From an uncultured Actinomycetes bacterium (GTDB taxonomy: Bacteria; Actinomycetota; Thermoleophilia; RBG-16-64-13), in contig CAWJDT010000001.1 of assembly GCA_963841735.1 (NCBI GenBank), positions 288,001 through 352,000 of the forward strand: a stretch of DNA of 64,000 nucleotides, read 5' to 3'. The notes beneath the pieces were generated by a model. That model was not told where the DNA came from, made no database searches, and saw nothing but the letters and a program-made list of their open reading frames with translations. Both the position numbers and the translations under genes were made by a program. This document shows, in pieces, positions 23,987 to 46,740 of the stretch (the first letter of the stretch is position 1; every line of letters begins with the position of its first letter).

Positions 23987-24072
23987 CCCTGCCCTCCTTT
24001 TGGAACTCAATGCGTCAGCACCCCATTCGCTTGGTTGCCGGCTCAAGACGGGCGTCCGTCCCAACCGCGTTG

Positions 24073-24129
24073 TAAGAATATCGATTCTGTTATGAAAGCG
24101 CAAGCTATAAGAATCACGATTCTTTTATG
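24073..24129. promoter_or_regulatory. Tandem palindromic operators (probable TetR sites)
   Basis: TAAGAATATCGATTCTGTTATG (24073-24094) and TAAGAATCACGATTCTTTTATG (24108-24129) are 19/22 identical. Each has an AGAAT-N4-ATTCT dyad and they lie between divergent genes. Confidence 0.75.
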
Positions 24130-24156
24130 GGCCATTCAATCGTCTATAATCATCGT

Positions 24157-24807
24157 ATGGAGCTAGAGCAAGCCACATTCCGACCCCCCCGCCGCAAACC
24201 TGGACACGCGTCTCTTGAGAAGATCTTGGCTGCGGCCGAGGACCAGCTTCGAGAGGAAGAGCTGGACTTCTTTACCATCCAAAGTGTGCTCGAGCGCACC
24301 GGACTGTCCGTCGGGGCCTTCTACGCCCGCTTCCCCGGCAAGGCCGCGCTACTACAGACGGTGCAGGACCGCCTGCATTCCCGCATGCAACCGGTCATTC
24401 TTGCCGCCTTGGAGGCTCAGGCACAAGTTGAAGAGTCGCTTGAGGAGGCGGTCGACCACGGCTTCGGCATCCTCGTCGAGCACATCCTCGCCGAACGCCA
24501 GCTGTCGCGGGCTTTCATGATGCTATCGGCCTTCGATCCCGTGATGCGCCAGAAAGGTGAGCAGGTCAACCTGGAGCGGAGGAGTGCCCTCGCCACGGTT
24601 CTAGCCGCCCATCGGGACGAGATCGGTCAGCCGGCTCCGGACGCGGCCATCGAGATGGCATACGTCACATACATATCGGTGATGCATGGCCGGCTGGTGT
24701 TCTTCAGCCCATCGAGCGTGCTGCGCTTCGGCGTGACCGACGAGCAGGTGTTCGGTCAACTCAAGGCGTCTTTGGCTGCCTTCCTGCGAGGCAGCGCCAC
24801 TCTCTAG
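24157..24807 (+). CDS. TetR/AcrR-family regulator
   Basis: [27 protein letters not shown]; TATAAT ends 6 nt before the ATG. Confidence 0.9.
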
Positions 24808-25745
24808 CGCTCGCCCGGAGTCTCTCGGCGCTTGGGCGACTTGGCCAACAGCTGCTCCACCAGGCCGTCTATCGCCTGCCAATCCTTTGTCAGATCGACC
24901 CGGCCGTCGTAGGCGGCGCGCACGGCCAAGAACATGGCAAGCAGGTTGCGCATGATATCGGCTCTCGTGTACTTGTTGTCCCAGGAGGCCCGCATCTCCA
25001 TGCTTTCGAGCACCCCGATGAACCCAAACGCCACCAACTCGTCGTCGAAGAGCCCGACATTCGCGCCGGGCTTCCGGTCCGCGGCCAGTTCGTCCGCCGC
25101 GCCCCGCAGCATCCTTTCGTAGACTCCCCGCACCAAAGGACGGAGCGCGCTCTCCGGGTGGAACGCCTCTACCCGAGCCATGGCCTGCAGATCGGGGCTG
25201 AAGGCCTGGATGCCGTTTCCCCCGTAGAGCCGCCAAGCCATGCGAGCGGCGGAATCACGCGTATGTTGGACGGCCTCCCAGACTTCGGCGCTCATGTACT
25301 CGTAGTAGACCTCCCAGCAGGCGATGAACAGATGCCTCTTGCTGGGGAAATGGGCGTAGAGCAACTGGGCGGTAATGCCTACATCCTTGCAGATGTCACC
25401 CACGCGGGTCTTCTCATATCCGTGTTCAGCGAAACGGGCGGCCGCCGCGTGCAGGATGGCGCTGCGCATGGCCTCGCTCTGCCTAGCCACGAGATCCACG
25501 TCGTTCTCAGACGCTTTCTCGATACGCGTCGCGAGTTGCGAACGGATCTCCTTCAGGCTCAGTCCTTGAGCTTTGAGGTTGGTGATAGCGAGCAACAGAT
25601 CGATGTGAGACTGGTCGTAGACCGCGCGGGTGGCGCTGGCCTTCTGCGCAGACGGCAGCAAGCCATCGCTGATGTAGTAGTAGATAGTGCTACGACCTAC
25701 TCCGGTCTCCTGCTCCAATTCCGATATGCTGAGCGCCCTCATCAT
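24804..25745 (-). CDS. MerR-HTH/TetR hybrid regulator (paralog 1)
   Basis: [26 protein letters not shown] (MerR HTH), followed by [32 protein letters not shown] (TetR HTH). Confidence 0.88.
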
Positions 25746-25766
25746 CAGTAGGTCACATCGTCCTGC

Positions 25767-26600
25767 TCATCGCGTCGTGATGTAGCCCCGCCATTGCTGC
25801 AGGTGATCGGACTCGGGCCGGTCGAGGATAAAGACCCCCACAAAGTCCTTGAAGGGCTCGAAGAAGGGGAGCTTGTCCCACTTGGCCCAAGCCGGTTTGC
25901 TGTACTGTCCGGCCTTCTCGACGAAGGCCTTGCGCCAACCTTCGGAGTCGTCGAACCAGATCTCCACTATGCGCTGAAAAGGGTTGATGCGCGGATCGTC
26001 CAACTGGCGGCTGGAGATAAATCGGTTTACCTCGGGCTGAGCCGCCACCTCCGGCGCGAACACCTCCTTGAACCAGGTGTCACCCTCGTCGACGGAGATC
26101 TCGTCCGGGTACTTCAGCAAGAAGAGCCAGCGGAAGTTGGCACCCGCGTCGGTGAGTCGCCCTTCTCCCTTGAAATCGTCTTCCCAGAACACCGGCGCGA
26201 AGGAAAACACGACGGGACGATAGCCGTCCCGGCTCCCCTGCCAACCGGACTGTCGCAACACCTTGCTGGGCGGCTGGCAGGTCATCTCCATGAAATCGTC
26301 GGGATACTCCTCGCCAAAGGCGAGGCCGGCGGGCATGCCGGTCCCCTTGCTCTGAAAGATGTTGAAGAGCCAGTAATGCTCGGTCATCATGCCGTTGTAA
26401 GTGCCGAAATCGAGCGCGCCTTCAGGCAGGGGCAGCGCATGGTAGGTGCAGTACTTGGTGCAGTAAGGCATGAACTGCGAGATGCTCTCGGGCACGTGTT
26501 GCTTGTACAGCCAGCGCCAGATCTTGGGCCGGTCGTTGTCGGAGCGGAAGTTCTGAAGGATGAAGCTCCGCATAGGCTTGAATTCAGGAAAATAAGCCAT
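25767..26600 (-). CDS. chi: Bacterial chalcone isomerase-like protein (E. ramulus CHI family, two ferredoxin-like domains)
   Basis: Colinear with the recalled E. ramulus CHI: F.PMRS, RPK..RW.YK.H.P.SISQF.PY.TKY, TEH.W, W..D.KG.GR...GAN.R, EIWF, KP.WA and RGYIT.R at the C-terminus. Confidence 0.85.
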   Translation of the reverse strand: MAYFPEFKPMRSFILQNFRSDNDRPKIWRWLYKQHVPESISQFMPYCTKYCTYHALPLPEGALDFGTYNGMMTEHYWLFNIFQSKGTGMPAGLAFGEEYPDDFMEMTCQPPSKVLRQSGWQGSRDGYRPVVFSFAPVFWEDDFKGEGRLTDAGANFRWLFLLKYPDEISVDEGDTWFKEVFAPEVAAQPEVNRFISSRQLDDPRINPFQRIVEIWFDDSEGWRKAFVEKAGQYSKPAWAKWDKLPFFEPFKDFVGVFILDRPESDHLQQWRGYITTR

Positions 26601-26610
26601 GACGCCTCTC

Positions 26611-27600
26611 CTATTCGTCTCCCTCGACCGCGACCTGCGCACGCGGCGGCTTGGTGGCCTTCAGGTACTCCTTGTACTTTGCCGTCTTCGCAGGAAGGTC
26701 GCCCATGTTGGCCGGCGGCTTGAGCGAGACGTTGGCCAGCTCCTCCAAGTGCATGAACTTGCCCGAGAGGAGCACGTGCGAGTGCGGCCGCTCCTCGTCG
26801 GTGACCGTGAATGTCACCTGGCCGCCGTCGGTGCTGAGCGTGCCCCGCACGCCACAGATGCCGCAGACTGTGGGGTACGGCTCAGCGGCGTTCCGAATCT
26901 CGAACAGCTTTGAATGACACATGGGGCACAGGCCGGGGTCGCCGATGTACTCGGCCTGGTCGAGGGGTTTCATGAGACTCTCGGCCACATGGCGGCCCGA
27001 CTTGCGGGCCCGCTCCAGCAGGTCGTCACGCAGGGCGACGACCTTGGGCAGCGCCACCCAGTTGACCAGGTATTTGTCGACCACCTCGAATTGCATGGAG
27101 AGGGTGAAAAGGTGCATCAACGGCAGAGCGAGGGTGTCCCACTCGCTGCCACCCACGGCGATCAGCGAAGCAGCCCTAGGCTTGAAGGCCCGCTGGTCGG
27201 GTCCCTCACCGGTGGTGATGCCACGCTCGGCCCGCATCTTGGTGGCCGCCATACGGAAGGCCTGGTCGTGCGACGGGCCCATGCGGTCGTTAAGAGTCTT
27301 GAGAAGCCCGGGCGGGGACTTCTCGTAGATGGGCGCGCCCAGAATGAGGCCGTCACAGTCCATGATCTTGTCGTCGATGAAGGGGAAGTCATCGTTCTTG
27401 AGAATGCACCGCCCCGGGCCGCACCGCTCAAAGAGGTCTTCCACGCACGAATTGCACCCGGTGCAGGGCTTGATATGGAGGTCCTGGAGCCGGATCAACT
27501 CGACCTCAGCGCCGGCCTCCTCGGCCCCCATGAGGGCTTCTTTGACCATGATCTCGGTGTTGCTTGCGCGCCTTCCGCAGGATAGGCCGAGGACTTTCAT
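26611..27600 (-). CDS. flr: Flavodoxin-like FMN ene-reductase, flavone/flavonol reductase (FLR)-like
   Basis: MKVLGLS, EALMGA..GAEVE, CTGCNSC, PIYEK, DRMGP, VGGSEW, CPMCHS, CGICG and LSGKFMH all match the recalled Flavonifractor plautii FLR layout. Adjacent to chi. Confidence 0.78.
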   Translation of the reverse strand: MKVLGLSCGRRASNTEIMVKEALMGAEEAGAEVELIRLQDLHIKPCTGCNSCVEDLFERCGPGRCILKNDDFPFIDDKIMDCDGLILGAPIYEKSPPGLLKTLNDRMGPSHDQAFRMAATKMRAERGITTGEGPDQRAFKPRAASLIAVGGSEWDTLALPLMHLFTLSMQFEVVDKYLVNWVALPKVVALRDDLLERARKSGRHVAESLMKPLDQAEYIGDPGLCPMCHSKLFEIRNAAEPYPTVCGICGVRGTLSTDGGQVTFTVTDEERPHSHVLLSGKFMHLEELANVSLKPPANMGDLPAKTAKYKEYLKATKPPRAQVAVEGDE

Positions 27601-27685
27601 TCTTCTGCTCCCTTGCTGTGCTTTGCTGCGCCGGTGGGCCGTTCGCCGGCATTCAGCCCGGCGAACGACCCCCAAGCTGACTTCT

Positions 27686-28912
27686 CTAGTTAAGCGTCCG
27701 CACGAACTCGAACGCGCCGGCTTTGATCTGGTACTCGACCAAGAATCCCTTTACGCCTTCGGTGGTGTCCTCGGGCATGTAGTTCTGCAGACCCTCGAGG
27801 GTCTGGACATCCCTCAGATTGACCAGTGCCTCACGCACCGCTTCCTTGTCATCCGCACCACCGGCCTGCTTCATGGCCGCCTCCAGAACGATGAAGTAGT
27901 CGGCACCCATGGCCGCGAAGAAGTCCGGCGCAAAGCCGTAGTTCGCAACGTAGCGGTCATAGAAGTCCACCTGGAAAGCTTTGGTCGGCCAAGTGTCGGG
28001 CAGGGCCTGCGGATTCACCATGCCGCCGGAATCCAGAACATAGAGACCCTCCACCGCTTCCGCACCCCTAGACATGACCGCCGGGTGAGCCGCGGCCGGC
28101 GAGCCATGTACGGGCACCGTCACTCCCAGAGTCCGCAGACCTTGGTATAGCGCCGGCTGCGCCAAGGGGTTGGACAGCGTGAAGATGGCGTCCGGCTTGA
28201 CCGAGTTGTACGCCTCCATGATCTTGTTCAAGATCGCCTGGGGATCGGGTAGGCTGAGACCGAAGGTGTCCGGCAGAACCGTGAGGGTGAACCCCTCGGT
28301 CGCCGCCAGCTCAACCAGCTTGGTTAGGGTCTCTTGGTGGATCGACAGGGTGTCGGCGATGGCCACTATGTTCTTGTACCCATGGGCCTTGATCAGCTTG
28401 GCGAAGGCATCCGCCTGAGTCACGGGGCCCGCGCCCATCATAACGCTCCACTTGTACGGAGTCGCCGCCTCAATCTGCTCGAGACTCGGGGGTCCCGCTC
28501 CTATCATGGGCATCTCGGCATCTTCGCAGATAGCCCGAGCCGCTTCCTGGCCAAACCCGATGAACGGGCCCACGAAATACTCGATGCCATCCTGCTCAAT
28601 CAGCTTGTTCATGGCCGCGGTCATCGAGGTCACCTCAGACTTGTCGTCTTCGATGAGGAGTTCGATCAGCCGGCCGTTGATCCCGCCGTTTTCATTGATC
28701 CATTTCACCTGATACTCGGCGCCATTCTTGATAGAGACGCCAGGAGCCGCGCTGGCTCCGGTGAGGCTGGTGACCATGCCGATCTTGATCGGCTCGTTGG
28801 AAGCAGCCCCGGTGTCACTCGTGGTGACTTCACCGCCGCCGCAGGCCATCGCCATCAAGGTGACCACCAACAACACTGCCAAGAGACCTGCAAGCATGAA
28901 CCGCTTTCTCAT
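27686..28912 (-). CDS. LIV-type (Peripla_BP_6) ABC substrate-binding lipoprotein
   Basis: Lipobox AMAC, IKIG..SLTG and INENGGINGRLIELLIEDD motifs. Confidence 0.9.
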   Translation of the reverse strand: MRKRFMLAGLLAVLLVVTLMAMACGGGEVTTSDTGAASNEPIKIGMVTSLTGASAAPGVSIKNGAEYQVKWINENGGINGRLIELLIEDDKSEVTSMTAAMNKLIEQDGIEYFVGPFIGFGQEAARAICEDAEMPMIGAGPPSLEQIEAATPYKWSVMMGAGPVTQADAFAKLIKAHGYKNIVAIADTLSIHQETLTKLVELAATEGFTLTVLPDTFGLSLPDPQAILNKIMEAYNSVKPDAIFTLSNPLAQPALYQGLRTLGVTVPVHGSPAAAHPAVMSRGAEAVEGLYVLDSGGMVNPQALPDTWPTKAFQVDFYDRYVANYGFAPDFFAAMGADYFIVLEAAMKQAGGADDKEAVREALVNLRDVQTLEGLQNYMPEDTTEGVKGFLVEYQIKAGAFEFVRTLN

Positions 28913-28987
28913 CGTTCCTCCTCTTCTTCCCCTGGTGTGAGACGCTTCCATTTTGCCCTATCCGTGCCTGATGCCTGAGAGCGTGCG

Positions 28988-31747
28988 CTAGCCCCGGCTG
29001 GAACCGAGGTAGCCTGCGCGCACGCGATCATCCGTCTTCAGGTCCCGCGACAACCCGGCAACGACCACGCTGCCGGTCTGCAGAACAACCCCACGGTGAG
29101 CCAGCGAGAGCGCCATCTCCGCGCCCTGCTCCACCATCAACATGGTCAAACCCTGTTTGTTCAGCTCAGCCAGCGCCTCAAAAATGCGCTCTACCACCAG
29201 GGGAGCGAGGCCCATCGAGGGCTCGTCCAACACCAGCAAATCGGGCTTGCCCACCAGCGCCCGGCCGATGGCCAGCATCTGCCGCTCGCCTCCCGAGAGG
29301 GTACCCGCCGCCTGCCTACGCCGTTCTCCCAGCACCGGGAAGAGCTCGTAGACGTAGGCGATGTCGTCGGCCAGCGTGTCCCGCCAATCGCGTCGCCCGG
29401 AACTACCCACCACCAGGTTGTCCTCCACCGAAAGGTCGCGGAACAAGCGGCGCCCCTCAGGTACCTGGCGAAGCCCACGAGCCGCGATCTTCTCCGGAGC
29501 CAGCCGGGTGATGTCGGAATCCTTGTAGGTAACCAAGCCCCGGTTTGGCTTCAGCAATCCCGAAACCGTGTGAAGCAGCGTGGTCTTGCCCGCCCCATTC
29601 GCCCCCAGTATGGCCACTACCTCGCCCTTGGGCACCACGAAGGACACCCCATGCAATGCCTCTATCGAGCCGTAGGAGGTAGCGAGGTCCTCGATCACCA
29701 GAAGGTTCTCGGGCTCGGCACAGGTTCCGGCGGCAAGATCCCGGGTCTGGCAGAGATCCTGGCCCTGGTCGAGTTTCACTCCCAAGTAGGCCTCGATGAC
29801 CGCGGGATCCTTCTGCACGGACTCGGGCCTCCCCTCACAGATGAGGCGGCCGTAGTCGAGCACGAACACATAGTCCGAAATATCCATGACCAACTCGATG
29901 TCGTGTTCCACCAAGAGCACCGTGATCCCCGACTCCCGGATGCGGCCTATCTGCTCGACCAAATGCGCGCGCTCCGAAGCGTTCATGCCGGCCGCGGGCT
30001 CATCCAGCAACAGCAGGCGCGGTTCAGAGGCCAGCGCCCGAGCGATCTCCACCAAGCGCTGCGAGCCGTAGGGAAGGCCGGCGGCAGGAGCAGATGCCGT
30101 TGCCTCCAGCCCCACCATGGCCAAGGCCTGCATGGCTCGCTCGCGGGACGCCCGTTCCTCTCTTCTCTGATGTGGAAGGCCCAGACCTCCAGCCCAAAGT
30201 CCCGTCTTTTCGTGGCGATGACAACCCACGAGGACGTTCTCGAGAACGCTCATGTTGGGATATATGCGAAGGTTCTGGAAGGTGCGGGCCATGCCCAAGC
30301 GCGCCGTGTTGGCAGTGGACATTTTGGTCACGTCCTTGCCGGCGAACCGAATGGTGCCCGCGGACATCTTCTGCAACCGGCTGATTGCGTTGAAGAACGT
30401 AGTCTTGCCCGCGCCGTTAGGGCCTATCAGCGCCACGATCTGCCCCTCCGTCACCTGCAGTGAGACCTGATCCACCGCCTTCAAGCCACCGAAGTGCACC
30501 GAGACCCCCTCGACCTCCAGAAGCGAACCGACCGCGGCCCCCTCTGAGGCCGCCCGGTCGCCCACAGCCCGAGCGAGCGACGAAACGAGGACTTCTGCCT
30601 CAGCGACCGTCAAGGCGGCCGTGCCCGCGGCGGCGCCAACCACCTGCGGAAGTCCTACTGATGTTTCGCACTGCCCGAGCGGCTGGTCCTCCTCGGCCGC
30701 CGCCGAGCACTGCAACGACTCGCGCAGCTTCTCTTTCCGGAAGAGCGCCTTGAGACACGCCCGCTGGTCGGGTCGCAACAGCAGACCGGCGGGCAAGAAC
30801 ATGAGCAGCAACACCATGATGACTGAGTACAACACTCCGCTGTACTGCCCGATGCCTGGGACCTTGGTCGGTAGCCAGTCTTTGATATAGATCATGATGA
30901 CGGCCCCGATGACGGCGCCCCAAACCGACCCAGCCCCACCTATGAGCATCATGACGATGGGGAGAATGGCCAATGAGAAAGTGAAGTCCAAGGGACTGAA
31001 GGCTCCGTTCACAAAAGCAAACAGACCGCCGGCCATCCCGCAGATCACGGCGCTGGTCACAAAGCCGAGGAGCTTCCAGTTGGCCGTGCGCATCCCCAGC
31101 GACGACGAGGCGATCTCGCTGGTGGCAATGGCCCGGAAAGCCCGGCCCATACGGTACTTGAGCGCACGGGAGACAAAGATGAGCACGATGATCACGATGA
31201 CCCAGACCAAGTAGTACTTGCTCATGGCGCCCGCGAACTCAAACCCGAAGAGGCTGAGCTTGGGCACCGGCGCGACTCCCTTTTCGCCGCCGGTGATCGA
31301 GCGCATGGTGACGTTCACAAGGGTCAGAAATATCTGACCGAGTCCAATCGTGGCCAAGGCCAAGTAAAAGTAGCGCAGCTTGAGCACCGGCCGGCCGACG
31401 ATGAGAGCGACAATTCCGGCGGCCAACGCCCCGAGGATGAGACAGGCTATGGTCGGCATGTGGAGTTTCATCGCCATGAGCCCGGTCATATAGGCGCCTA
31501 TGCCGTAGAAGGCGGAGTGGCCGAAGGAGAGCTGCCCCGCTTGGCCCAGCACTATGACCACCCCGATGGTAAGAAGCGCGTACAGGCCGGCCGTCCTCAT
31601 GTACCCCATGTGGACCTTGTTGCCAAACACAAGTGGCCAGACCAACAAGGCGACTACCATGAGCACCTTGAGGATGGTGCCCCCGTGCCTGCTCCAGTAC
31701 GTTCTGAAGGCCGGGGCGCCATTCTTTAGCAGCCTGCCGGCCATCAT
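28988..31747 (-). CDS. Fused LivM permease + LivG + LivF ATPases
   Basis: GQLSFGH permease followed by two NBDs (GPNGAGKTT/LPYG/DEPAAG and GANGAGKTT/LSGGE/DEPSMG) in one 919-aa frame. Confidence 0.92.
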   Translation of the reverse strand: MMAGRLLKNGAPAFRTYWSRHGGTILKVLMVVALLVWPLVFGNKVHMGYMRTAGLYALLTIGVVIVLGQAGQLSFGHSAFYGIGAYMTGLMAMKLHMPTIACLILGALAAGIVALIVGRPVLKLRYFYLALATIGLGQIFLTLVNVTMRSITGGEKGVAPVPKLSLFGFEFAGAMSKYYLVWVIVIIVLIFVSRALKYRMGRAFRAIATSEIASSSLGMRTANWKLLGFVTSAVICGMAGGLFAFVNGAFSPLDFTFSLAILPIVMMLIGGAGSVWGAVIGAVIMIYIKDWLPTKVPGIGQYSGVLYSVIMVLLLMFLPAGLLLRPDQRACLKALFRKEKLRESLQCSAAAEEDQPLGQCETSVGLPQVVGAAAGTAALTVAEAEVLVSSLARAVGDRAASEGAAVGSLLEVEGVSVHFGGLKAVDQVSLQVTEGQIVALIGPNGAGKTTFFNAISRLQKMSAGTIRFAGKDVTKMSTANTARLGMARTFQNLRIYPNMSVLENVLVGCHRHEKTGLWAGGLGLPHQRREERASRERAMQALAMVGLEATASAPAAGLPYGSQRLVEIARALASEPRLLLLDEPAAGMNASERAHLVEQIGRIRESGITVLLVEHDIELVMDISDYVFVLDYGRLICEGRPESVQKDPAVIEAYLGVKLDQGQDLCQTRDLAAGTCAEPENLLVIEDLATSYGSIEALHGVSFVVPKGEVVAILGANGAGKTTLLHTVSGLLKPNRGLVTYKDSDITRLAPEKIAARGLRQVPEGRRLFRDLSVEDNLVVGSSGRRDWRDTLADDIAYVYELFPVLGERRRQAAGTLSGGERQMLAIGRALVGKPDLLVLDEPSMGLAPLVVERIFEALAELNKQGLTMLMVEQGAEMALSLAHRGVVLQTGSVVVAGLSRDLKTDDRVRAGYLGSSRG

Positions 31748-32622
31748 TCCTCGCCCTCGTTGGAGGGGATCCCGAGCAGCCCAGTGGGCCGGAAGTACAA
31801 GAACAGAATGAGAATGGCGTAGGCGATAGCGTCCTCGTTACCCGCGGGCACGAAACCCAGCGACAGGTTCTGGATGATGCCCAACGCGAGACCGCCAACC
31901 ACCGCACCGCTGCTGGAGCCCCAGCCACCCAGAATGGCAGCCACAAAACCGCTCAAGGCAAACATGCCACCCGACATGTACGTGGTCTGGCTGATGGGGT
32001 TGACGGCGATGCCCCCCAGAGCTCCGATGGCGGCCGATATAGCAAAGGCCAGAAGGATCATGCGCCCGGTATTGATTCCCGACAGACTGGCCGCGCCCGG
32101 GTCGGAGGCGGTGGCCGACATCTGCTTGCCGATGCGGGTGTAACTGGTGAGAAGATGCAGGGCCACCAGCACAACGATCATCAGCCCGATTACCCACAGG
32201 CTCTGCCTCGATACGTTCACCCCGCCAATGCGGATGACCTGCTCGCCGGTGAAGTACGGGATGCTCTTGCCGTAGCCCCCCCAGCGCAACAGACTGAAGT
32301 TCTCGAACAGGATGCTGAGCGCCAAGGTGGCCAGGATTATGGACACCAGCGAGATCTTGAGAAGAGGCTTGAGCACCAGCACATACATGATCAGACTCAA
32401 GATGACCACGCAGATGATGCCCAGGATGGTGGAAAGCCAATACGGGAGGCCCAGTTCGACCAGGAACGAAAAGGTGAAGAACGCCCCGAACATAACGAAG
32501 GCCCCTTGGGCCATGTTGACGATACGCGAAGTGCGATAGATGGTGACGTACCCAAGGGCTATGAGGGAGTAGATACTCCCCATGGTTATGCCGGTCACCA
32601 GTAGCTGGATCCACTTGACCAC
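31744..32622 (-). CDS. LivH-type ABC permease
   Basis: GSIYSLIALG, NMAQG and AAILGGWGS motifs. Confidence 0.92.
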   Translation of the reverse strand: MVKWIQLLVTGITMGSIYSLIALGYVTIYRTSRIVNMAQGAFVMFGAFFTFSFLVELGLPYWLSTILGIICVVILSLIMYVLVLKPLLKISLVSIILATLALSILFENFSLLRWGGYGKSIPYFTGEQVIRIGGVNVSRQSLWVIGLMIVVLVALHLLTSYTRIGKQMSATASDPGAASLSGINTGRMILLAFAISAAIGALGGIAVNPISQTTYMSGGMFALSGFVAAILGGWGSSSGAVVGGLALGIIQNLSLGFVPAGNEDAIAYAILILFLYFRPTGLLGIPSNEGEE

Positions 32623-32684
32623 AAGCACCTCGCGCAAAAGAGACGACGAAGCAGCCCGACCATCGACTGGCGGGTCGGCACATT

Positions 32685-32713
32685 ATGCTAGAGCCCGCGC
32701 GCGCTCTTGTCAA
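32685..32713 (-). promoter_or_regulatory. Sigma70-type promoter of the livH-flr-chi operon
   Basis: TTGACA-17 nt-TAGCAT on the minus strand. Confidence 0.7.
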
Positions 32714-32899
32714 GTATTTCCATCAGCGTTATGTATTGTCATGTCGTATTGCGCTCCGCCGATGCTCGGCCGCCCGGTGCGATTGCGGTGTATCTTGGCG
32801 GGAAGCGCCACCGAGGGCCGTTCACGGACAGCGGGAAGATGCTCCGGCCAGGTGATGTGGGAGCGCCGCGGGCCACACCGTCCAACGTATGGAGGTCAG

Positions 32900-33926
32900 A
32901 TGATCGTCGCAACCGGAGCCACCGGCCATGTGGGCAACGCACTGCTACGCGCCCTCTTGGAACGCCAAGCGGGCGGCGCGAAGGCCGGCCCCGCCGATGC
33001 TGCCGGGTTCACCGGCCCTTTGCGGGCGGTCGTGAGGCGTCAGAGCGACAGGTCCAGCCTGGCCGGCCTGAGACGTCGAGTTGGTCGAAGCCGACATGGG
33101 CGACGTCGAGTCCCTGGCCGCAGCCTTCCGGGGAGCGGACGCCGTCTTTCATGTAGCCGGGCTCATCAGCATCGGGGGCGAGAGACTCGAGAGCCTCCGC
33201 GCCACCAACGTGGAGGGCACCCGCAACGTGATCGAGGCCTGCCGGCTCGCGGGCGTCCGCCGACTGATCTACACCAGCTCGGTGCACGCTTTCGTCGAGC
33301 CGCCGCACGGCACTCCCACCGACGAGAACACCCCCATAGACCCAGAGCGGGCCCACGGTCCCTACGGCGTCACCAAGGCGGCGGCCACGCAGTTGGTGTT
33401 CGCCGCCGCCCGGGAGGGTCTCGACGCCGTGGTGGTATTCCCCTCGGGCATCATCGGGCCGTATGACTATCGGCCGTCGCATACGGGGTCGTTCATCAGG
33501 AGCGTCCTCCGGCGGAGGCTGGGGGCCTACGTCGACGGCGGATACAACTTTGTGGACGTGAGAGACGTGGCTGCCGGCCTCATCGCGGCGCTTGAAAGCG
33601 GCCGCTCAGGGGAGGGATACCTCCTGGCCGGGCAAGAGGTGACGGTGAGGCAACTGCTCAGCACCATCGAGGAACTTTCGGGTGTGCCCGCGCCCCGGCT
33701 CCGGCTCCCCTTCGGCTTCGTGCGCGCAGTCAGCTTCCTCACCCCCGCCTACTACAGGGTCACGAGGCAGAAGCGCGTATTCACCACCTACTCGCTCGAC
33801 GTCATCGCCTCGAACTGCTGCATGGACAGCAGCAAAGCCGCCCGGGAGCTGGGCTACTCGCCTCGGCCCCTGCGCGAGACCTTGGCAGACACCGTGCGCT
33901 GGTTCCGAGAGCAGGGGATGGTCTAG
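32900..33926 (+). CDS. Extended SDR / dihydroflavonol-4-reductase-like NAD(P) epimerase (frameshift near 33071)
   Basis: TGATGHVG Rossmann motif, HVAG, NVEGT, YTSS and YGVTK. There is an extra base in GGC CTG A GAC GTC. Confidence 0.85.
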
Positions 33927-34044
33927 GGGATGGCGAGCGTGACGTCGCACATAGTTGGCCTCCGCGCTAAAGCTTCGCCTTGAGAAAGACGACAAGACCG
34001 TAAGTGCTTCCGAACTTCGCGCCTAACCGAAAGTCCACGTCAGG

Positions 34045-36288
34045 GTGAGATTGTCAATACAATACTCGCGGATGTCCCTCCGCTGGAGGATTCTCGTCCC
34101 CTTTCTAGCGGTCTCCCTGATCGTGTCGTTCACGGGTGCGTGGGTGCTCGGGCGTTCGCTGGAAGACCAAGTGTACGATCAAGCCGACGAAGAGGTGCAG
34201 CAAGAGGCCGCATTCATCGCCTCCTATCTCGAACGCGAGGGGTCGTTCATCGTCTCGCAGCTGACCCTCGCGGTCGAAGAGGGCAGGATGCTGATAGGCA
34301 CCGAGACAAACCTCGCCGAGGCGATGTCTGAGCTGGATGTGGTGAGCATCATGCGGATGCTCGGATTCGGTGGCAATAGTCTGGTCAAGGTCGACCTCGT
34401 CAAGATCGTGGGCCCTCATGGAGAGACGGTGCTCGAGCTGCACCGAGATCTGCTCACGGGACGCCAGCTCGATGACGAAGCACTAGTCGCCAAAGGTCTC
34501 GATGGCATCAGCTGCGGGGACATCATCACGACGACCGATGGCAAGAGCGCATACCTCGTGGGCACCGCGGCACTCGCGGGCACCTCGACGCTAGAGGACG
34601 CGTCCTCGGGTGGACTTCTCATTCTGGGAAGCAAGATCGATCGGAAAGCGTTGTTGGGTACGGGGTTGTCAGAGCGCGTGCTCTTTGCCTTCACCGACGA
34701 CGGCATCGCGGCCTGCAGCGAGAACGGATACAACGATGCCGAGTGGACCGAGGCACTTGCCACGGCAAGCGGCGGGCGCCTCACAGTAGGCGGCGAGCAG
34801 TACGTGATGGCGAGCGCCCCGGTGAACATCAACGGCGCACCCAGCGCGGTGCGCGTGGCCACTGCCCTGCCCCTTGAGGCTCTGGCGGCCGAGGCCGCCG
34901 GCGACTGGACACGCACCTGGCTGATATTCGCGGCGGGGGCGGCGGTGCTACTCCTAGCCGGGCTCATCGTCGCCCGACGACTCGTCCATCCCGTGCGCCA
35001 ACTGACCGCCGCGACCGCGCGGTTGAAGAACGGCGATTTTGACACGCGCATCGAGATAAGGCGTGGCGACGAGATAGGCGAACTGGCCCGGGCTTTCAAT
35101 ACGATGGGCGAGGAGCTCAAGACACGAGATGCGCGTCTGGCCGAGAGTTTTAACGAGGTCAAGCGGCTCAGCGAGACCGACGCCCTTACCGGCCTACTCA
35201 ACCACCGCATGATCGCCGAGCACATAGGCCGAGAAGTGGCCAGAGCAATGCGCTATGGAGGCCGCTTCGGCTTGATCGTCATCGATCTGGACAACTTCAA
35301 ACTTCTAAACGACACCTACGGCCACCCCGTGGGCGACGAGGCTCTCCGGCGATTCGCCCGGATACTCATGGACCAGACCCGAGAGATAGACTCAGTCGGC
35401 CGGTGTGGCGGAGACGAATTCATGCTGGTTCTGCCGGAATGCGGCCCGCAGGAAATAGCAGGAGCTGTCGAGAAACTGCGGACAGTACTGGCCTCCAATG
35501 CATTCGAAGCCCCCGACGGCAGCCTCGTACCGATCAGGATGAGCCTGGGTGTGGCCTGCTATCCGGATGACGCCCAAGACGTGAACACGCTCATCGCGTT
35601 GGCCGACGCCAACCTATACCTGTCAAAGAGCCGCGGTGGCGAAACGGTCACAGGTGTACCGCTGGATGAGATCTCGTTGGAGGACATGACCGCCTTTGGC
35701 ATGTTGGGCTCACTCGTCACCCTCGTGGACAACAAAGACCGCTACACGCGCCACCATTCGGAAGAAGTGACAGCGCTGGCCATGATTATCGGCAAGGCTC
35801 TCGACCTCTCCGAGGAAAGCCAGCGGGTACTGCGTGTCGCCGGATTGCTGCACGATGTCGGCAAGATCGGCGTGCCTGATCGCATTCTGCGCAAGCCGGG
35901 GCGCCTCACCGATGAAGAGTACGAGATAGTCAGACAGCACTCCGCGGTGGGCGACGCGATCATTGCCGCCATACCCGACCTCGCCGAGATCCGCTCCATC
36001 GTCTTGTCGCACCACGAGCGTTACGACGGCAGCGGATATCCCAGTGAATTGTGTGGCGACAAGATCCCGCTCATGGCTCGCATTCTGGCCGTTGCCGATT
36101 CCTACTCGGCCATGGTGACCGACCGGCCGTACCGGAAGGCGCGGACCAAAGAGGCGGCGATTGCCGAGCTGCTGGCCTGCAGAGGCACCCAGTTCGATCC
36201 CGAATGCGTCGACGCGTTCATCGGCGTGCTGGAAGGCCAGAAAAGCACTCTCGGAGCCGAGAGAACGAACGTGGTCAGTCAGGACTAG
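34045..36288 (+). CDS. Membrane sensor HAMP-GGDEF-HD-GYP protein (c-di-GMP turnover)
   Basis: Two TM helices, HAMP DEIGELARAFN, RxxD I-site with GGDEF, HDVGKIG and HHERYDGSGYP. Confidence 0.93.
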   Translation: MRLSIQYSRMSLRWRILVPFLAVSLIVSFTGAWVLGRSLEDQVYDQADEEVQQEAAFIASYLEREGSFIVSQLTLAVEEGRMLIGTETNLAEAMSELDVVSIMRMLGFGGNSLVKVDLVKIVGPHGETVLELHRDLLTGRQLDDEALVAKGLDGISCGDIITTTDGKSAYLVGTAALAGTSTLEDASSGGLLILGSKIDRKALLGTGLSERVLFAFTDDGIAACSENGYNDAEWTEALATASGGRLTVGGEQYVMASAPVNINGAPSAVRVATALPLEALAAEAAGDWTRTWLIFAAGAAVLLLAGLIVARRLVHPVRQLTAATARLKNGDFDTRIEIRRGDEIGELARAFNTMGEELKTRDARLAESFNEVKRLSETDALTGLLNHRMIAEHIGREVARAMRYGGRFGLIVIDLDNFKLLNDTYGHPVGDEALRRFARILMDQTREIDSVGRCGGDEFMLVLPECGPQEIAGAVEKLRTVLASNAFEAPDGSLVPIRMSLGVACYPDDAQDVNTLIALADANLYLSKSRGGETVTGVPLDEISLEDMTAFGMLGSLVTLVDNKDRYTRHHSEEVTALAMIIGKALDLSEESQRVLRVAGLLHDVGKIGVPDRILRKPGRLTDEEYEIVRQHSAVGDAIIAAIPDLAEIRSIVLSHHERYDGSGYPSELCGDKIPLMARILAVADSYSAMVTDRPYRKARTKEAAIAELLACRGTQFDPECVDAFIGVLEGQKSTLGAERTNVVSQD

Positions 36289-36475: not shown

Positions 36476-37764
36476 ATGCCGTCGGAGATCGAGAGTCTAC
36501 ACAAGAAGTACCTGTTTCCCTGCGTAGCTACCTACTATGAGAAGCCCCTCACGCTGGTCCGGGGCAAGGGCATGCATCTCACCGACGCTGAGGGCAAGAA
36601 GTACCTTGACTTCTTCGGCGGCATCCTCACCGTCAGCGTGGGCCACTGCAACTACAACGTGAACCAGGCGGTCATCGACCAGTGCCAGACGCTGCAGCAC
36701 ACCTCCACGCTCTATGTTACCGAGCCCCAGGTGCGACTGGCCAAGAAGCTGGCGGACCTCACACCCGGGGCACTCAGCAAGAGCTTCTTCACTTCTTCGG
36801 GCACCGAAGCCAACGAGACGGCCGTGCTCTTTGCCGGCGTTCCACCGGCCGCTCCGACGTCGTCGCGCTTCGCCACGCCTACTCCGGCCGTAGCGAGGTG
36901 ACCCTCAACATCACCGCTCACTCCACCTGGCGCCCGATGCCCAGCAGCATCGCCTACATCAAGCACGCCCACAACCCGTACTGCTATCGCTGCGGCCTGG
37001 GTCTCTCCTATCCGTCCTGCGACCTGCGCTGCGCACGCGACGTGGAGGAGCTGATTCAGACGACCACGACCGGCGAGATCGCAGCCTTCATGGCTGAGCC
37101 CATCCAGGGAGTGGGCGGGTTCATCACGCCGCCCAAGGAGTACTTCCAAGTGGTCCTGGAGATCGTGCGCAAGTACGGCGGGCTGTTCATCTGCGACGAG
37201 GTGCAGACGGGATGCGGTCGCACGGGCAAGACGTTCTGCGGCATCGAGCACTGGGATGTGCAGCCCGACATCATGACCTTCGCCAAGGGCCTGGCCAACG
37301 GACTACCGATCGGAGCCACCATCGCCACGCCCGCCGTAGCCGACTGCCTCACGGGGCTCTCCATCGCCACTTTCGGCGGCAACCCGGTAAGCACCCGGGG
37401 TGCGCTGGCCACCATCGAGTTCATCGAGAGCCAGCGACTGGCCGACAACGCTCACCTGCAGGGGGGACGGCTCCGCGATGGCCTCGAGGCTCTCAAGGCC
37501 AAGTACCCCTGCATCGGCGACGTGCGCGGCATGGGCCTCATGCAGGGCATGGAGGTGGTCGATCCGGCCTCGCCCGGCGGCAAGGCGCCCGATGCCAAGA
37601 AGGTGCTGCGGGTGTTTGAAGAGACGCGCCACTTGGGGCTGCTGATCGGCAAGGGCGGACTCTACGGCAACGTCATACGCCTCACACCGCCGCTGATAGT
37701 GTCTTCGAGCGAAATCGACGAGGCGCTGGTCGTGCTCGACAAGGCCTTCGCCGCGGCAGGCTGA
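36476..37764 (+). CDS. Class-III PLP aminotransferase (frameshift near 36835)
   Basis: YLDFFGG, SGTEANE, EPIQGVGG, DEVQTG.GRTG, AKG and TFGGNP. The halves lie in two frames. Confidence 0.9.
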
Positions 37765-37815
37765 TCGCGCCGCAAACGGGGGCTCGCGCCCTCGTGGGCC
37801 GCGAGCGCTGCGCTG

Positions 37816-38776
37816 TCAGTCCAGCAGCCCCGCGGGCAGATCCGACCCACGCGGCGATAATCGCCTGGATCTGGTCCTCGTAGCGCGCCAGCCGCGAGTC
37901 TATGTCGACTTCGCCGCTCAGGGCGGCTTGGATGGCCAGAAACAGCCAGAGATGGGTCCGGAGAAGATCTCCGCGATCGTACTTGTCGTCCCAGGAGGCC
38001 CTCATGTAGCTGTTGTCCTGAGCGCCGAGCAGACTGTAGGCGATCAACTCGAAGGGAACAGGCTCCCCGGGTGACCCCTTCGGGCGCATGGCCTTCAGGT
38101 CCTCGATCATGGGACCGACGATGGCCCCAAACGCCTCCTCCACGAACTTGCGGATGTCGCTCTCCCCGTGAGTGCCCTCCGAGTGGATGAGACCTATCAC
38201 ATCCACACCCAGAGCACGTATCCGGAGGTCGCCGACCAAGTTGGCAAGCAGCCTCTCTCCAAAGTCGGTTGTCCTGGCCAGTTCGGGCTGCCGGTCGGCC
38301 ACGTTCCACTTGATGAAGGTGTTGTGACACTCGATCAGGAGCCGGCGCTTGCTCGGGAAGTGATCATAGAAGACGTGCGGAGTGACTCCGGCCTTCTTGA
38401 TGATGGTGGCCACGTGGGTCTGCCGGTACCCCTTGGTCATGAACTCCCTGGTGGCGACCAGGATGATGGCCCTGTGGGTCCGCACATTCTCCTGCTCCGC
38501 AAGATCGACACCGCTCTGGTTGGCCCGGTCGAGCGTGTGCTCAAGCTCGTCCTTGATCTCCGCCAGCGAGCGGCCGGCCTGCTTCAGCTCACCGATCTGC
38601 ATGAGCATCTGAACGTGGTCCTCGGAGTACAGTGAGCGGCTGGCCGCCGTCTTCGCGGGTTGGGGCAGCAGCCCTTCGCGGATGTAGTAGTGGATGGTGC
38701 TTCGCGCCACCCCGGTCGCCTGCTCAAGAGCGGAGATTGTCAGTGCCTTGCACGATGTGCGGTCTCCTCGACTCAC
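37816..38776 (-). CDS. MerR-HTH/TetR hybrid regulator (paralog 2); C-terminal frameshift likely
   Basis: LTISALEQATGVARSTIHYYIREGLL plus a TetR HTH; shares RASWD.KY.R.D with paralog 1. A shifted frame ends ...PAGLLD* at 37816. Confidence 0.85.
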
Positions 38777-38822: not shown

Positions 38823-39495
38823 TCAAAGCCGCATCCGCCTATCTGTGCCGTCCTCACTCTGAAATAGTCCCAGGAGTTCAGTGATCCCCCCCAACCTGAA
38901 GTCGGCTTCGCTGCTGCGCACTGCATCTCCGATCGCCGCCGCCAGCATCCCGGCCGCTTTCGCCGCCTTGATACCCGCCTCCGCGTCTTCGACCACGACG
39001 CACTCGTCCGGCCTTACCCCGAGCCGGCGGGCGGCGACCAGGAAGACGTCGGGGGCCGGTTTTGTCCGCTTTATGTCATTGCCATCCGCCAGCGCGTCGA
39101 AAGCGTCTTGCAGACCTATCTGCTCGTAGAATGCGCGGGGCGTTCCTGCTGGACGAGCCTACGGCGATCTTGATACCCGCGGCCTTCAGCGCGTCGAGAA
39201 CTGCCGTGACCTCCTTCGGCACGTCGTCCGGAGTAAGACTCCGCAGAGCCTCCACGTAGCGGGCGTTCTTGGTCTCCGCCAGCGCGAGCTTCTCCGCATC
39301 GCTGTACTGCCTCGGAGCCCCCTCCAGGATCATCTCCAGACTCTCCATCCGGGAGACGCCCCGCAGGCGGTTGTTGATGACTTCGTCGAAGTAGATGCCC
39401 TCGCTATCGGCGATAGACTTCCACGCCCGGTAGTGCAGGGCGTCGGTGCTGACTATCACCCCGTCCAAGTCGAATATCACCGCCCGGATGTTCAT
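38823..39495 (-). CDS. pgmB: Beta-phosphoglucomutase (frameshift near 39126)
   Basis: FDLDGV, HYRAWK, LRGVSRMESL and SSSRNA. After the shift it reads KPAPDVFL..VVEDAEAG. Confidence 0.88.
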
Positions 39496-39497
39496 CC

Positions 39498-41216
39498 CTA
39501 TAGCCTGGTGTCCCATTTGCCGCAGAACGGATCCACGGGGCTCGTGCCCTTGAACGGCGACCTGCCCATCAGCTTGTCCATCAACTTCTCCAGGACCGTG
39601 TCCGAGGAACCGTAGGTGTTGATGTAGGTCTTCACCCGCGGAACATCGAGTAGGTGGTAGGGATTCTCGAGCGAGATGAAGACGGTCGGGACGGAATTGA
39701 CGTAGATGGGGACATCGCTGCCCATGGGGGGCGCCCACTTGATTCTGACTGTGGTCTGATTGCTCCTGGTGCCCAGGTTGGCCACGTAGATCATGAGGTC
39801 ATAGCCGGCCACAAGTCGGCATAGGACCGCAGGCGGCCTTCCATACCTTCAGGGGCCGCAAAGACCTCGACGGTGAAGCCCTCCTTCTCCAGCAGCGACC
39901 TGGACTTGCTCCGTCAGCCCTGCGTCCGGGCGCCGCGGCCAAAGAAGTCCCCATCGCTTTCCAGTCGGTACAGCAACACCCGCTTCGTCCTGCTCGGGAC
40001 TCAAGGGGAGGACTCCCTTCTGCTGCTTCACAAGCGTTATCGACTCGTCCGCGCACTCTCCGGCCCAAGCGCGGTGCTCTGGGCAGTTCAGTATCTCCTT
40101 GGCGGTCTCCAACCGAGGAACAAGCGCGCCCTGTGCCTTCTTCTCGTGCAGCCGCAGACGCGGCCTTGAGCGCAAGCACGTTGCGCACTGCGTCCGTCAG
40201 CCTCTCCTCCGTCAGGATGCCGCTCGTCAAGCCGTCTCTCATGTAGCCGAAGTCTTCCGTCCAGATTCCTGGTGAACAAGAAGACGTCACAGCCCGCGGC
40301 TATGGTCTGCGGCACAGCCTTCGACCGTTCCATGGCCATGGCCATCCCCGCCATGGGGGTGGCGTCGCTGACCACCAAGCCGGCAAATCCGAGCTTCTCC
40401 CGAAGAAGAGTAGTGGTGATCTCGTACGACAGCGAGGCCGGCAGGATGTCCTCGTCCTTGATGCCGGGATGAAGCCTTCTCGAATACTCCGGCAGGGCGA
40501 TGTGCCCCACCATCACAGCCAGCGCGCCCGCGTCGATGCAGGCCTTGAACACCTGGCCGTAGCTGTCGTCCCATGCCTCACAGCTCAGAGTGTTGACCGT
40601 GGTGACCAGGTGGTGGTCTCGTTCGTCCACGCCGTCGCCCGGGAAGTGCTTCACCGTCGCGGCGACCCCGTTTTCCTGGAGCCCCTTCAGACAGGCCGTA
40701 GCCATGTCGATCACGCACCCCGGGTCAGATCCGAAGGTCCTCGTGTTGGTGATGGGGTTCCGGAAGTTGTAGTCGATGTCGACGACGGGCGCATAGGCCC
40801 AGTTGATCCCCACCGCGGAAGCCTCCCGGCCGCAGGCGACGCCCAGCTTGTAGGCCATGCTCCACGTCGCCGGTGGCGGCGACCGCCATCAGGCTGCCGA
40901 TGCGCGTGCCATCGGTAGACACACCATCCCCGCCCGCCTCGAGGTTGCCGGACATAAGCAGGGGCACCTCGCCGCTCTCTTGGAGCAATCTCACCGTGTC
41001 GATGACGTCTTCGGCCGAGCCGCTGCGGCACATCACCCCGCCGACCTTGAGGACGCCGGCCATATGCCGCAGGGCCTTCTCGTCGGCGCCGTAGGAGACC
41101 AGGCAGAACACCTGCCCGATCTTCTCCTCCACCGACATGGCGCCGAGCGTGCTCTCCACCCAGTCGACATCGGCGTCGCTGAGCAGAAACGGGGCCTGTT
41201 GCAGTCTGCTATTCAT
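39498..41216 (-). CDS. GH3 glycosidase / beta-glycoside phosphorylase-like (multiple frameshifts)
   Basis: EEKIGQ, NLEAGG, APVVD, TRTFG, KHFPGDGVDERDHH, VVSDA and SLENPY..SPVDPFC, spread over several frames. Confidence 0.85.
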
Positions 41217-42060
41217 CGGCGTCTCTGTAGATGATCGACGCTTTGCCGTGCGACGTTCTCCGCAGCTCCGCGGCGAAGGGTAGTTCGCGGCTCAGATACC
41301 AGTGGTTCAGCCGCGGAGCCACCTGCTGGCTGACCTTCGAGGATGGCCCTGTCGAGCTCGATGAAATCGTCGATGTGCGAACAGGCGATGGGGGCGCCAT
41401 TGTGCGCGGGGCAGATAGACGCGAACTCCGCCTGCCGGGCCTTCAGTCTCAGCATGTTGGCCAGGTGCTTGTCGACCATGGCCATCCAGCGCGGCCCGGT
41501 CGTTCGTATGGTAGTCGAACAGCAGGACCTGCCCCGCCTCGATCTCGTCACCCGCAAACAGCATCTTCGTCTGCCGATCCAACAGCGCGATGCTGCCCGA
41601 AGCGTGAGCGGGTATCTCGATTACTTCCACTTGTCGCCCGCCCAGCTCGAACACGAAGCCCTCGCCTACAAAGACCTTCGTGTAGTCGGGCCACGGAAGC
41701 TCGCGCCGCTCGCGGCAGCGGGGGCATGCCGGCGATGTCGGCCAGCCGCGTCGGCATGCATGTGCACTTCTTGCCACCAGCCGTTGCCGCCCACGTGGTC
41801 GAGATGGCCATGAGTGTTCACTACGATCAGCGGCTTGTCCGTGAGCCGCTCGACGTACTTCCTCAGCGGCCCGCATCCCCAGCCCGTGTCGATGAGGAGG
41901 GCCCGCTCGCTCCCCTCCAGGAGGTACATGTACTGCGTCCCACGCAGCATGGTGATGAATACGGTGGTGTCGTCGCCCGCCAGTGTTCATAACTTTCCCG
42001 CAGCATTCTCCACACGCTCTTCCCGCGACCGCTCTCGGTCGCCAACCTCGGCTTCACCAT
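41209..42060 (-). CDS. MBL-fold hydrolase (multiple frameshifts; start uncertain)
   Basis: LLIDTG, NTHGHLDH, PAHASGS, FAGD and PAHN across frames. Confidence 0.7.
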
Positions 42061-42115
42061 CGATCGTAGACGCTCTCGCGGCTGTGACCATAGCCGGAGG
42101 GCGCTTAGCTCCTGG

Positions 42116-42144
42116 ATAGTAGAGCTTGCCAAGCCGAGTGTCAA
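42116..42144 (-). promoter_or_regulatory. Sigma70-type promoter (MBL-GH3-pgmB operon)
   Basis: TTGACA-17 nt-TACTAT on the minus strand. Confidence 0.7.
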
Positions 42145-46716: not shown

Positions 46717-46740
46717 GCGCGAGCCACCACAGCTGCCAAG

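Follow-up and report, generated by a model that had tools for sequence, protein, structure and literature searches.

The closest described counterparts of the locus analysed here, six genes at 24804-32713 of a 64,000-nt stretch of DNA (the window) from an uncultured actinobacterium, are the FLR-CHI pair of Flavonifractor plautii and the CHI/Fcr/Phy pathway of Eubacterium ramulus. They and the window have the same two enzyme families, flavone reductase (FLR) and bacterial chalcone isomerase (CHI), and share the catalytic residues. In F. plautii (locus L051), flr lies directly upstream of chi with a gap of ~30 nt, an arrangement like that of the window. However, the window enzymes are 38% (FLR, over 308 columns with L051) and about 40% (CHI) identical to their described counterparts, and the window CHI falls into a separate clade with a short lid. 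The window also has a LIV-type transporter and a regulator joining a MerR-type to a TetR-type module (MerR-TetR), which occur in 0/36 loci of the characterised type, and its host is an environmental actinobacterium, whereas F. plautii and E. ramulus are gut Firmicutes. The flr-fcr-phy clusters of Clostridium butyricum and C. ljungdahlii are operon-like, as is the window locus, and have a host that also lives outside the gut (PMC11868195). These clusters contain Fcr and Phy, with no CHI, importer or regulator described in them, whereas the window operon shows the reverse composition.

The transporter belongs to the same family as CouPSTU of Rhodopseudomonas palustris, a HAAT importer of lignin-derived phenylpropanoids with a binding protein of the same Peripla_BP_6 type, which provides a precedent for the import of plant aromatics by systems of the 'branched-chain amino acid' type (PMC3610893). 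However, the similarity of CouP to the binding protein of the window is weak (E 2.8e-13), CouP binds C6-C3 acids rather than the C15 flavonoid proposed here, and in the window, unlike in CouPSTU, LivM, LivG and LivF are fused in one chain. The regulator resembles TetR-family regulators in having a TetR helix-turn-helix (HTH) followed by an all-helical ligand-binding domain and in the placement of its gene in the operon that it probably controls; its top match is Mce3R (PDB 9B7Y), with two TetR modules in one chain. It differs from the TetR family in an extra N-terminal MerR-type winged HTH. Flavonoid-responsive repressors of the TetR family include TtgR, QdoR/LmrA and FrrA.

The comparisons reported below make it probable that the operon is a module for flavonoid uptake and for entry into anaerobic flavonoid degradation, with a flavonoid-responsive regulator. 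The pathway itself is known; what is new is the host lineage, the clades of both enzymes and their association with the transporter and the regulator. The substrates, the transported compound and the action of the regulator are what we infer from sequence. The features of the operon, in the order of transcription, are as follows.

32685..32713, minus strand: sigma-70-like promoter TTGACA-17-TAGCAT, best promoter-like match (10/12)
31744..32637, minus strand: livH-type permease, BPD_transp_2 (PF02653, E 1.7e-35)
28988..31747, minus strand: livM-livG-livF fusion (livMGF), a single 919-aa polypeptide with BPD_transp_2 and two ABC_tran domains
27686..28951, minus strand: extracellular substrate-binding protein (SBP), Peripla_BP_6 (PF13458, E 8.1e-44)
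26611..27600, minus strand: flr, FLR-family FMN ene-reductase (flavone/flavonol reductase homologue), 329 aa (PDB 7D38, E 6.8e-68)
25767..26600, minus strand: chi, bacterial chalcone isomerase homologue of the short-lid clade, 277 aa (PF18232; PDB 4D06)
24804..25745, minus strand: regulator, N-terminal MerR-type winged HTH fused to a complete TetR-family repressor (MerR_1 and TetR_N)

All six genes have the same orientation, and the coordinates give a 4-nt overlap between livH and livMGF followed by gaps of 36, 85, 10 and 21 nt. An earlier interpretation made from the letters of the window alone (the sequence-only reading) had described six co-oriented genes with short or overlapping junctions behind a TTGACA-17-TAGCAT promoter, and both parts of this description hold. 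Conservation among the relatives places the likely true start of livH at the GTG at 32622. The open reading frames of flr and chi reach 27675 and 26642; the alignment with FLR homologues and with PDB 7D38 begins at the Met at 27600, and the start of the 277-aa CHI homologues corresponds to 26600. A promoter scan of 24000-34100 found 5 sites compared with 1.6 +/- 1.2 in shuffled sequences, with TTGACA-17-TAGCAT as the top match. Alignment of the regions upstream of livH from the window and 10 related loci showed TTGACA in 8/11 and both TTGACA and TAGCAT in 6/11, with diverged flanks. Because both hexamers are kept in 6/11 regions despite the divergence of the flanks, the site is regarded as a real promoter beyond chance. 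Its spacer is occupied by an 18-nt imperfect palindrome (32690-32707), which is not conserved in sequence in the same alignment and which might, at a guess, be the operator. No terminator-like site was found downstream of the regulator gene, which is convergent with a separate TetR gene on the plus strand (24127-24807) and overlaps it by 4 nt.

The reductase and isomerase homologues

The product of flr matches the F. plautii flavone reductase structures PDB 7D38-7D3B over the full length. In the phmmer alignment with 7D38, residues 26-345 of the query align to residues 1-309 of the 310 in the chain, including the C-terminal extension that WrbA-type flavodoxins lack. Residues were compared among 57 homologues and the window, limited to matches with a query coverage of at least 90% whose alignment begins no later than query residue 3. 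The window FLR retains E91, K92, D103, G106, V144, G146, S147, W149, the four-Cys motif, H271, T305 and P307, and has Leu in place of I275, as do 21/58 of the aligned FLR homologues when Leu at this position is counted. Yang et al. reported that the mutants G106A, W149A, H271A and I275A had lowered or lost activity, that the C-terminal tail is essential, and that all 11 homologues selected at an identity of at least 30% converted apigenin (PMC7862272). Characterised FLRs are very divergent, one being 70% identical to the C. ljungdahlii enzyme and 28% to F. plautii FLR (PMC11868195). The full-length match and the retained critical residues bear out the identification of flr as a member of the FLR family, and its product is predicted to reduce flavones and flavonols at the C2=C3 bond.

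Two FLR types exchange at the same position within the host genus. The type of the window and of locus L001 is 64-75% identical to the FLRs of other genera of the host family. In the nine other genomes of the same genus with a match (G058, G070, G112, G124, G136, G148, G153, G163 and G173), chi is adjoined by the other type, which is 37-39% identical to the window FLR and 47-49% identical to F. plautii FLR.

The product of chi matches Pfam Chalcone_N PF18232 with 90.1 bits (cut-off 25) and E. ramulus CHI (PDB 4D06) over the full length (E 7.5e-51). Its AlphaFold2 model, built from 71 sequences with a pLDDT of 92.8, has a two-domain ferredoxin-like fold. Foldseek comparison of the model with the E. 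ramulus CHI structures 8B7U, 4C9S and 3ZPH gave a TMq of 0.88 and a TMt of 0.93 (E 4.5e-31), and superposition gave an r.m.s.d. (root-mean-square deviation) of 2.1-2.7 Å; the next folds have TM values <0.5. The equivalents of the catalytic His33 and of Tyr48, His73 and Glu91 are retained, and the polarising acid Asp36 is replaced by Glu (residue roles from PMC9694015 and PMC8361940). An Arg of the window CHI aligns with Arg125. In the A-ring pocket Thr71 is kept and Gln69 is replaced by Met, and the alignment is ambiguous at Gln101. In the CHI of E. ramulus type, the lid is formed by 25 residues (106-130). The full-length match, the TM values and the conserved catalytic His agree with the earlier view of chi as an E. 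ramulus-type CHI, with chalcone/flavanone isomerisation and flavanonol-to-auronol contraction as the predicted reactions.

A scan for CHI loci yielded 268 matching stretches; a relative is encoded in 188 of them, and the analysis used the best 80. The residue table and the tree, the latter a quick IQ-TREE run, contain 80 CHI-family rows from 76 of these 80 loci plus the window; the rows are plus-strand matches with at least 85% query coverage and no X, and L028, L030, L035 and L042 were left out. Three groups can be distinguished among them. In group I, the characterised type, 36 rows are 38-42% identical to the window and their lid segment measures 27-38 residues. The 44 rows of group II, the type of the window (itself included), all have a lid segment of 21 residues. 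Group III consists of four distant paralogues (26-29% identity to the window), whose segment has 6 residues and whose C-terminal domain carries an additional loop. The pattern of His33, the acid (Glu for Asp36), Tyr48, His73 and Glu91 is present in 44/44 rows of the window's clade (the window and 43 loci). In the tree, SH-aLRT support is 100% for the separation of group I and 97% for a clade made up of the 25 actinobacterial rows. Four Bacillota rows (Fusibacter, Acidaminobacter) are the sister of this clade (99% support). The tree and the alignment thus place the window CHI in a clade separate from the characterised type, with a shorter lid.

The shorter lid opens another reading of chi, in which the protein, as in the inactive branch B of Meinert et al., would not be a chalcone isomerase and would have some other role as the partner of FLR. 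Compared with the 36 loci of the characterised type, the lid lacks 6-17 residues, and branch B, a divergent branch with extra residues in the solvent-exposed domain, was reported to lack CHI activity (data not shown there; PMC8361940). Both points speak against an isomerase in the window. However, E. ramulus CHI with the lid deleted keeps one fifth of its activity, the lid being not essential (PMC9694015), so that the short lid does not disqualify the window CHI. The window's clade retains His33 and the other core residues; all of the 67 CHI-like proteins of branch A have His33, and 13/13 wild-type members tested were active on chalcones (PMC8361940). By its description, branch B probably corresponds to group III, with its lower identity and 6-residue segment, rather than to the window's clade. 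None of the accessions of clade members (Vibrio sp. HA2012, Halotalea, Fusibacter and Caloramator) equals the two accessions in the main text of PMC8361940. A protein without isomerase activity is considered very improbable.

The group III paralogues are proteins of 252-260 aa (L013:19636-20373, L027:7094-7858, L034:2340-3095 and L036:9197-9973), each encoded <10 kb from a true chi, and weak matches resembling them also occur in genomes of the host family. Within group II, the CHIs of Halotalea, Brenneria, Vibrio salinus and an Orbaceae bacterium (P0023, P0027, P0032 and P0048) have N-terminal hydrophobic extensions of ~30-40 residues. These extensions resemble signal peptides, which hints at a periplasmic location.

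Linkage of the importer and the regulator to flr-chi

The neighbourhoods of chi were compared by tblastn over the 80 loci, grouped by the identity of their chi to that of the window; the group at 75% or above includes L028 and L042. Orthologues were accepted at an identity of at least 60% for livMGF and at least 40% for the SBP. The counts of loci are given below, with livMGF in one HSP denoting a match to the fusion in a single high-scoring segment pair.

Loci with chi at least 75% identical (n=28): flr 25; flr <300 nt from chi 22; livMGF 14; livMGF in one HSP 12; SBP 12; MerR-TetR 13
Other group II loci (n=16): flr 5; flr <300 nt from chi 2; livMGF, livMGF in one HSP, SBP and MerR-TetR 0
Group I loci (n=36): flr 27; flr <300 nt from chi 20; livMGF, livMGF in one HSP, SBP and MerR-TetR 0

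Neither the transporter nor the regulator is linked to flr-chi in any of the 52 loci outside the first group, and 10 of the 14 loci without liv genes inside it are contigs of <13 kb. The gene order differs among the loci and the linkage persists. Judging from these counts, the flr-chi pairing is general, F. plautii included, and what is peculiar to the actinobacterial clade is the addition of the transporter and the regulator. The conserved linkage for which the sequence-only reading had called a synteny search was thus recovered, with the importer in 14/28 and the regulator in 13/28 loci of the clade. The FLR candidates of Yang et al. were originally drawn from the STRING partners (gene neighbourhood, co-occurrence and co-expression) of chi and phy (PMC7862272). 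The host, described earlier as apparently actinobacterial, is placed accordingly by its neighbours, since the nearest 23 loci are from uncultured metagenome-assembled genomes (MAGs) labelled Actinomycetota, Actinomycetes, Thermoleophilia or Gaiellales. The window genome has 2.82 Mb in 8 contigs, 63% G+C and a completeness of 89.7%. L028 and L042, from MAGs titled Gammaproteobacteria and Thermodesulfovibrionales, encode chi products 83-85% identical to that of the window, by either mis-binning or recent transfer.

Searches of 201 whole genomes of the class found chi orthologues (at least 76% identity) in 18/35 other genomes of the host family and in 0/165 genomes of 11 other families. An SBP orthologue (at least 50%) is present in 17/18 host-family genomes with a chi orthologue, and in 8 of them it lies on the same contig <10 kb from chi. 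Of the 22 genomes with an SBP orthologue, 20 have flr. Five genomes have an SBP orthologue and no chi orthologue; in two of these (G094 and G130), the SBP gene is ~5 kb or less from flr on the same contig. These counts are given without statistics because the genomes are related to one another.

The operon encodes the full LIV/HAAT set of two BPD_transp_2 permeases, two ABC ATPases with a BCA_ABC_TP_C tail and a Peripla_BP_6 protein. In the LivM-LivG-LivF fusion, BPD_transp_2 occupies residues 49-315 and is followed by the LivG part (residues 408-656) and the LivF part (residues 681-915). The fusion is retained as one HSP in 12/28 related loci. The idea that the fusion itself is unusual was rejected: 68/150 best cluster representatives have 790-970 aa, the size of an M-G-F protein. 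The signal peptide of the SBP starts at the Met at 28912 and ends in a Cys. The nearest solved relatives of the SBP are weak matches (E 2e-15 to 1e-12) that include CouP (4JB0), which binds ferulate (PMC3610893), and 7YLT, an entry cited in work on an auxin-degradation operon of Variovorax (PMC10374108). Thus, plant aromatics have precedent as substrates of LIV-type transporters.

Whether these genes could form an ordinary amino-acid or amide importer that merely adjoins flr-chi, leaving the two enzymes alone to concern flavonoids, was weighed with the NCBIfam models and the linkage counts. The LivG part scores 394.5 bits against NF008449, above the LivG equivalog cut-off of 362, LIV-type systems are numerous in the window genome, and the five genomes with the SBP and without chi fit such an importer. 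The solved relatives of the SBP are distant and say nothing specific on flavonoids, which, with those five genomes, counts against an importer tied to flavonoids. However, the SBP (48.7 against a cut-off of 477), LivH (110 against 379) and LivF (360 against 441) are far below their cut-offs; with the LivG-type ATPase alone passing, orthology to the branched-chain amino-acid system of E. coli was not found. The orthologous transporter genes accompany flr-chi in 14/28 loci of the clade despite rearrangements and in 0/52 others, 20/22 genomes with the SBP have flr, and the SBP lies within ~5 kb of flr where chi is missing. One promoter serves the six genes, whose junctions are short. An unrelated amino-acid importer is therefore judged improbable, and the preferred reading remains that the importer would be dedicated to flavonoids.

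The regulator has a MerR_1 domain at residues 6-69 and a TetR_N domain at residues 97-143 (E 1.3e-18). In its AlphaFold2 model (pLDDT 86.2), a long helix (64-112) links the two HTH modules and is followed by helices at 115-301. Both domains are present in all 120 homologues listed of the 192 found. Among the 201 genomes of the class, the MerR-TetR family occurs in 24/35 genomes of the host family, with 1-6 copies each, and in 3/35 of one other family; the architecture was not found in the other 10 families of the class searched. The regulator called unusual in the sequence-only reading is indeed a MerR-type HTH joined to a TetR protein, and the fusion was found in two of the families of the class searched. 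MerR-family activators have a dimerisation coiled coil, a C-terminal effector site and a promoter spacer of 19-20 nt. In the window regulator the HTH alone (6-69) matches MerR, no MerR effector domain was found, and the promoter spacer has 17 nt. Thus, by its domains the protein has a MerR-type head and is yet not a MerR-family regulator in the functional sense. Since the spacer of 17 nt is not the long spacer of MerR-activated promoters, TetR-style repression relieved by a ligand is the favoured mode of action. No paper on the MerR-TetR architecture was found in the literature.

A second MerR_1 and TetR_N fusion, ~36% identical to the operon regulator, is encoded in the window at 37682-38776 on the minus strand. 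Another unusual fusion, of regulator and enzyme, lies at 2341-3963 on the plus strand: a protein of 540 aa with a GntR HTH, an FCD ligand domain and Hydrolase_3 (HAD phosphatase).

Downstream steps and genomic setting

Fcr and Phy are absent from the window operon. Candidates elsewhere in the window genome are distant. Contig 5 carries three tandem genes of the DAPG-hydrolase family (46011-50185, L088), mutually 58-68% identical. A GATase1-like gene and a BD-FAE esterase fragment lie between them, and a further esterase, a lactonase and an MFS transporter flank the group. The genome also has two enoate reductases of the old yellow enzyme (OYE) type, one of which neighbours a UbiD decarboxylase, a TetR gene and a second LIV system that is not fused. 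The reductases found in flr-chi clusters of relatives and of Firmicutes share 38-43% identity among themselves, and the best enoate reductase of the window genome is 35-36% identical to the actinobacterial and 28-30% identical to the Firmicute ones. Similarly, the cluster-linked Phy proteins are mutually 40-50% identical and ~30% identical to the three DAPG hydrolases. A supply of canonical Fcr and Phy by the genome was accordingly rejected, the genome holding distant paralogues only. The description of the operon as self-contained does not stand.

A larger cluster is present in a close relative (L044:1937-20675; also in L001 and L006). Its gene order is livH, livMGF, SBP, a corrinoid protein, a URO-D-type methyltransferase, flr, chi, an FAD flavoprotein, Phy, a second FAD flavoprotein, MerR-TetR, an enoate reductase, an FMN reductase and a TRAP binding protein. 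Phy is a DAPG-hydrolase match (E 5.7e-66), the enoate reductase matches OYE and Pyr_redox_2, the flavoproteins match FAD_binding_2, and the corrinoid protein and methyltransferase are O-demethylase-like. The co-occurrence of homologues of all four published pathway enzymes in this cluster is the strongest contextual support for the predicted flavonoid assignment, and the window operon is a pared-down version of a cluster of this type.

These observations bear on the question of whether the operon instead acts on neighbouring plant phenolics (isoflavones, aurones, methoxylated flavonoids or other aryl enones) or serves mainly in detoxification or as an electron sink, with the transporter importing another compound. 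Several findings would suit such a role and weigh against flavonoid degradation. The identities to characterised members are low (38% for FLR and 34-40% between the window CHI and that of E. ramulus), and both enzymes belong to clades without assayed members. FLR has W72F and K282L, and residues of the B-ring and A-ring pockets of CHI differ, with Gln69 replaced by Met and no clear equivalent of Asp79. FLR and CHI alone yield neither carbon nor energy, the reductase and the hydrolases of the genome are not close orthologues of Fcr and Phy, leaving full catabolism not evident, and the relatives add O-demethylase-like genes. However, the conversion of apigenin by 11/11 FLR homologues at an identity of at least 30% (PMC7862272), the activity of 13/13 tested branch-A CHIs on chalcones and the full set of FLR, CHI, Phy and reductase in the clusters of the relatives argue for flavonoids. 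Other phenolics or a detoxifying role are accordingly held to be unlikely, though they deserve more weight than the alternatives for chi and for the importer, and uptake and anaerobic attack of flavonoids is retained as the preferred reading.

The surroundings of the operon in the window include a GH78 rhamnosidase, a GH3 fragment, esterases, an aldehyde:ferredoxin oxidoreductase and a phosphoketolase with acetate kinase. Rhamnosidase and beta-glucosidase activities would fit the release of flavonoid aglycones from rutinosides. Several glycoside-related genes at 39076-49551 appear frame-split: the GH78 alpha-L-rhamnosidase is in two overlapping open reading frames (46491-48620 and 48394-49551), and the GH3 gene is a fragment only (40088-40858), owing to either assembly frameshifts or gene decay. 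Divergent from the operon promoter, a gene for an NAD-dependent epimerase/dehydratase of the extended SDR type (32900-33926, plus strand) is broken across two frames near 33080-33100, with the Epimerase Pfam match in the second piece (33081-33926); it is either a frameshift error or a pseudogene.

Proposed route and implications

The host is an uncultured actinobacterium of soil or digesters, probably fermentative and anaerobic. In the proposed route, the membrane-anchored binding protein would capture a flavonoid aglycone outside the cell and hand it to the LIV/HAAT-type ABC importer formed by LivH and the LivM-LivG-LivF fusion. Inside, the FLR homologue with reduced FMN would reduce the C2=C3 bond, converting flavones to flavanones and flavonols to flavanonols. 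The CHI homologue would then open the C ring of flavanones to give chalcones, or contract flavanonols to auronols. The TetR-type ligand-sensing repressor with its extra MerR-type head probably keeps the promoter shut until a flavonoid binds. Ring cleavage by Fcr and hydrolysis by Phy would come from elsewhere, either from the distant paralogues in the genome or from other members of the community.

Neither the combination of genes in the window nor a connection of Thermoleophilia or Gaiellales with the pathway enzymes was found among the papers listed in the literature searches, with the supplements of the cited papers possibly listing related sequences. The earlier claim of an undescribed combination stands to this extent; that flr and chi are neighbours and that both enzymes extend beyond gut Firmicutes had already been published (PMC7862272, PMC8361940). 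FLR homologues are widespread, with a few in Actinobacteria, and also occur in flavonoid-rich environments (PMC7862272), and CHI-like proteins are known from environmental anaerobes (PMC8361940). In anoxic wetland soil, CHI, FCR and PHY are expressed by Holophaga and Sporomusales MAGs (PMC8084988), and Actinobacteriota MAGs are rich in polyphenol transformations (PMC11153144). Databases name the homologues 'multimeric flavodoxin WrbA', 'flavodoxin family protein', 'hypothetical protein' or 'acetyl-CoA hydrolase', and neither FLR nor CHI is represented by an NCBIfam model, much as the sequence-only reading had expected of standard annotation pipelines.

Anaerobic flavonoid breakdown bears on the gut metabolism of dietary polyphenols and on the 'enzyme latch' question of polyphenol persistence in anoxic soils. 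Bacterial uptake and sensing of flavonoids are largely undescribed, and the locus offers a concrete candidate importer and sensor. If confirmed, the transporter and the regulator would serve as markers for metagenome annotation and as parts for flavonoid biosensors or cell factories. With this locus the pathway reaches an actinobacterial lineage of which little is known, and attention is drawn to the short-lid CHI clade and the second FLR type. More tentatively, and with somewhat less than an even chance in our estimate, the SBP and the fused transporter may be the first SBP-dependent ABC importer for flavonoid aglycones, the hybrid of MerR head and TetR a new kind of flavonoid sensor, and the Thermoleophilia-related family a group of dedicated anaerobic flavonoid consumers in soils and digesters.

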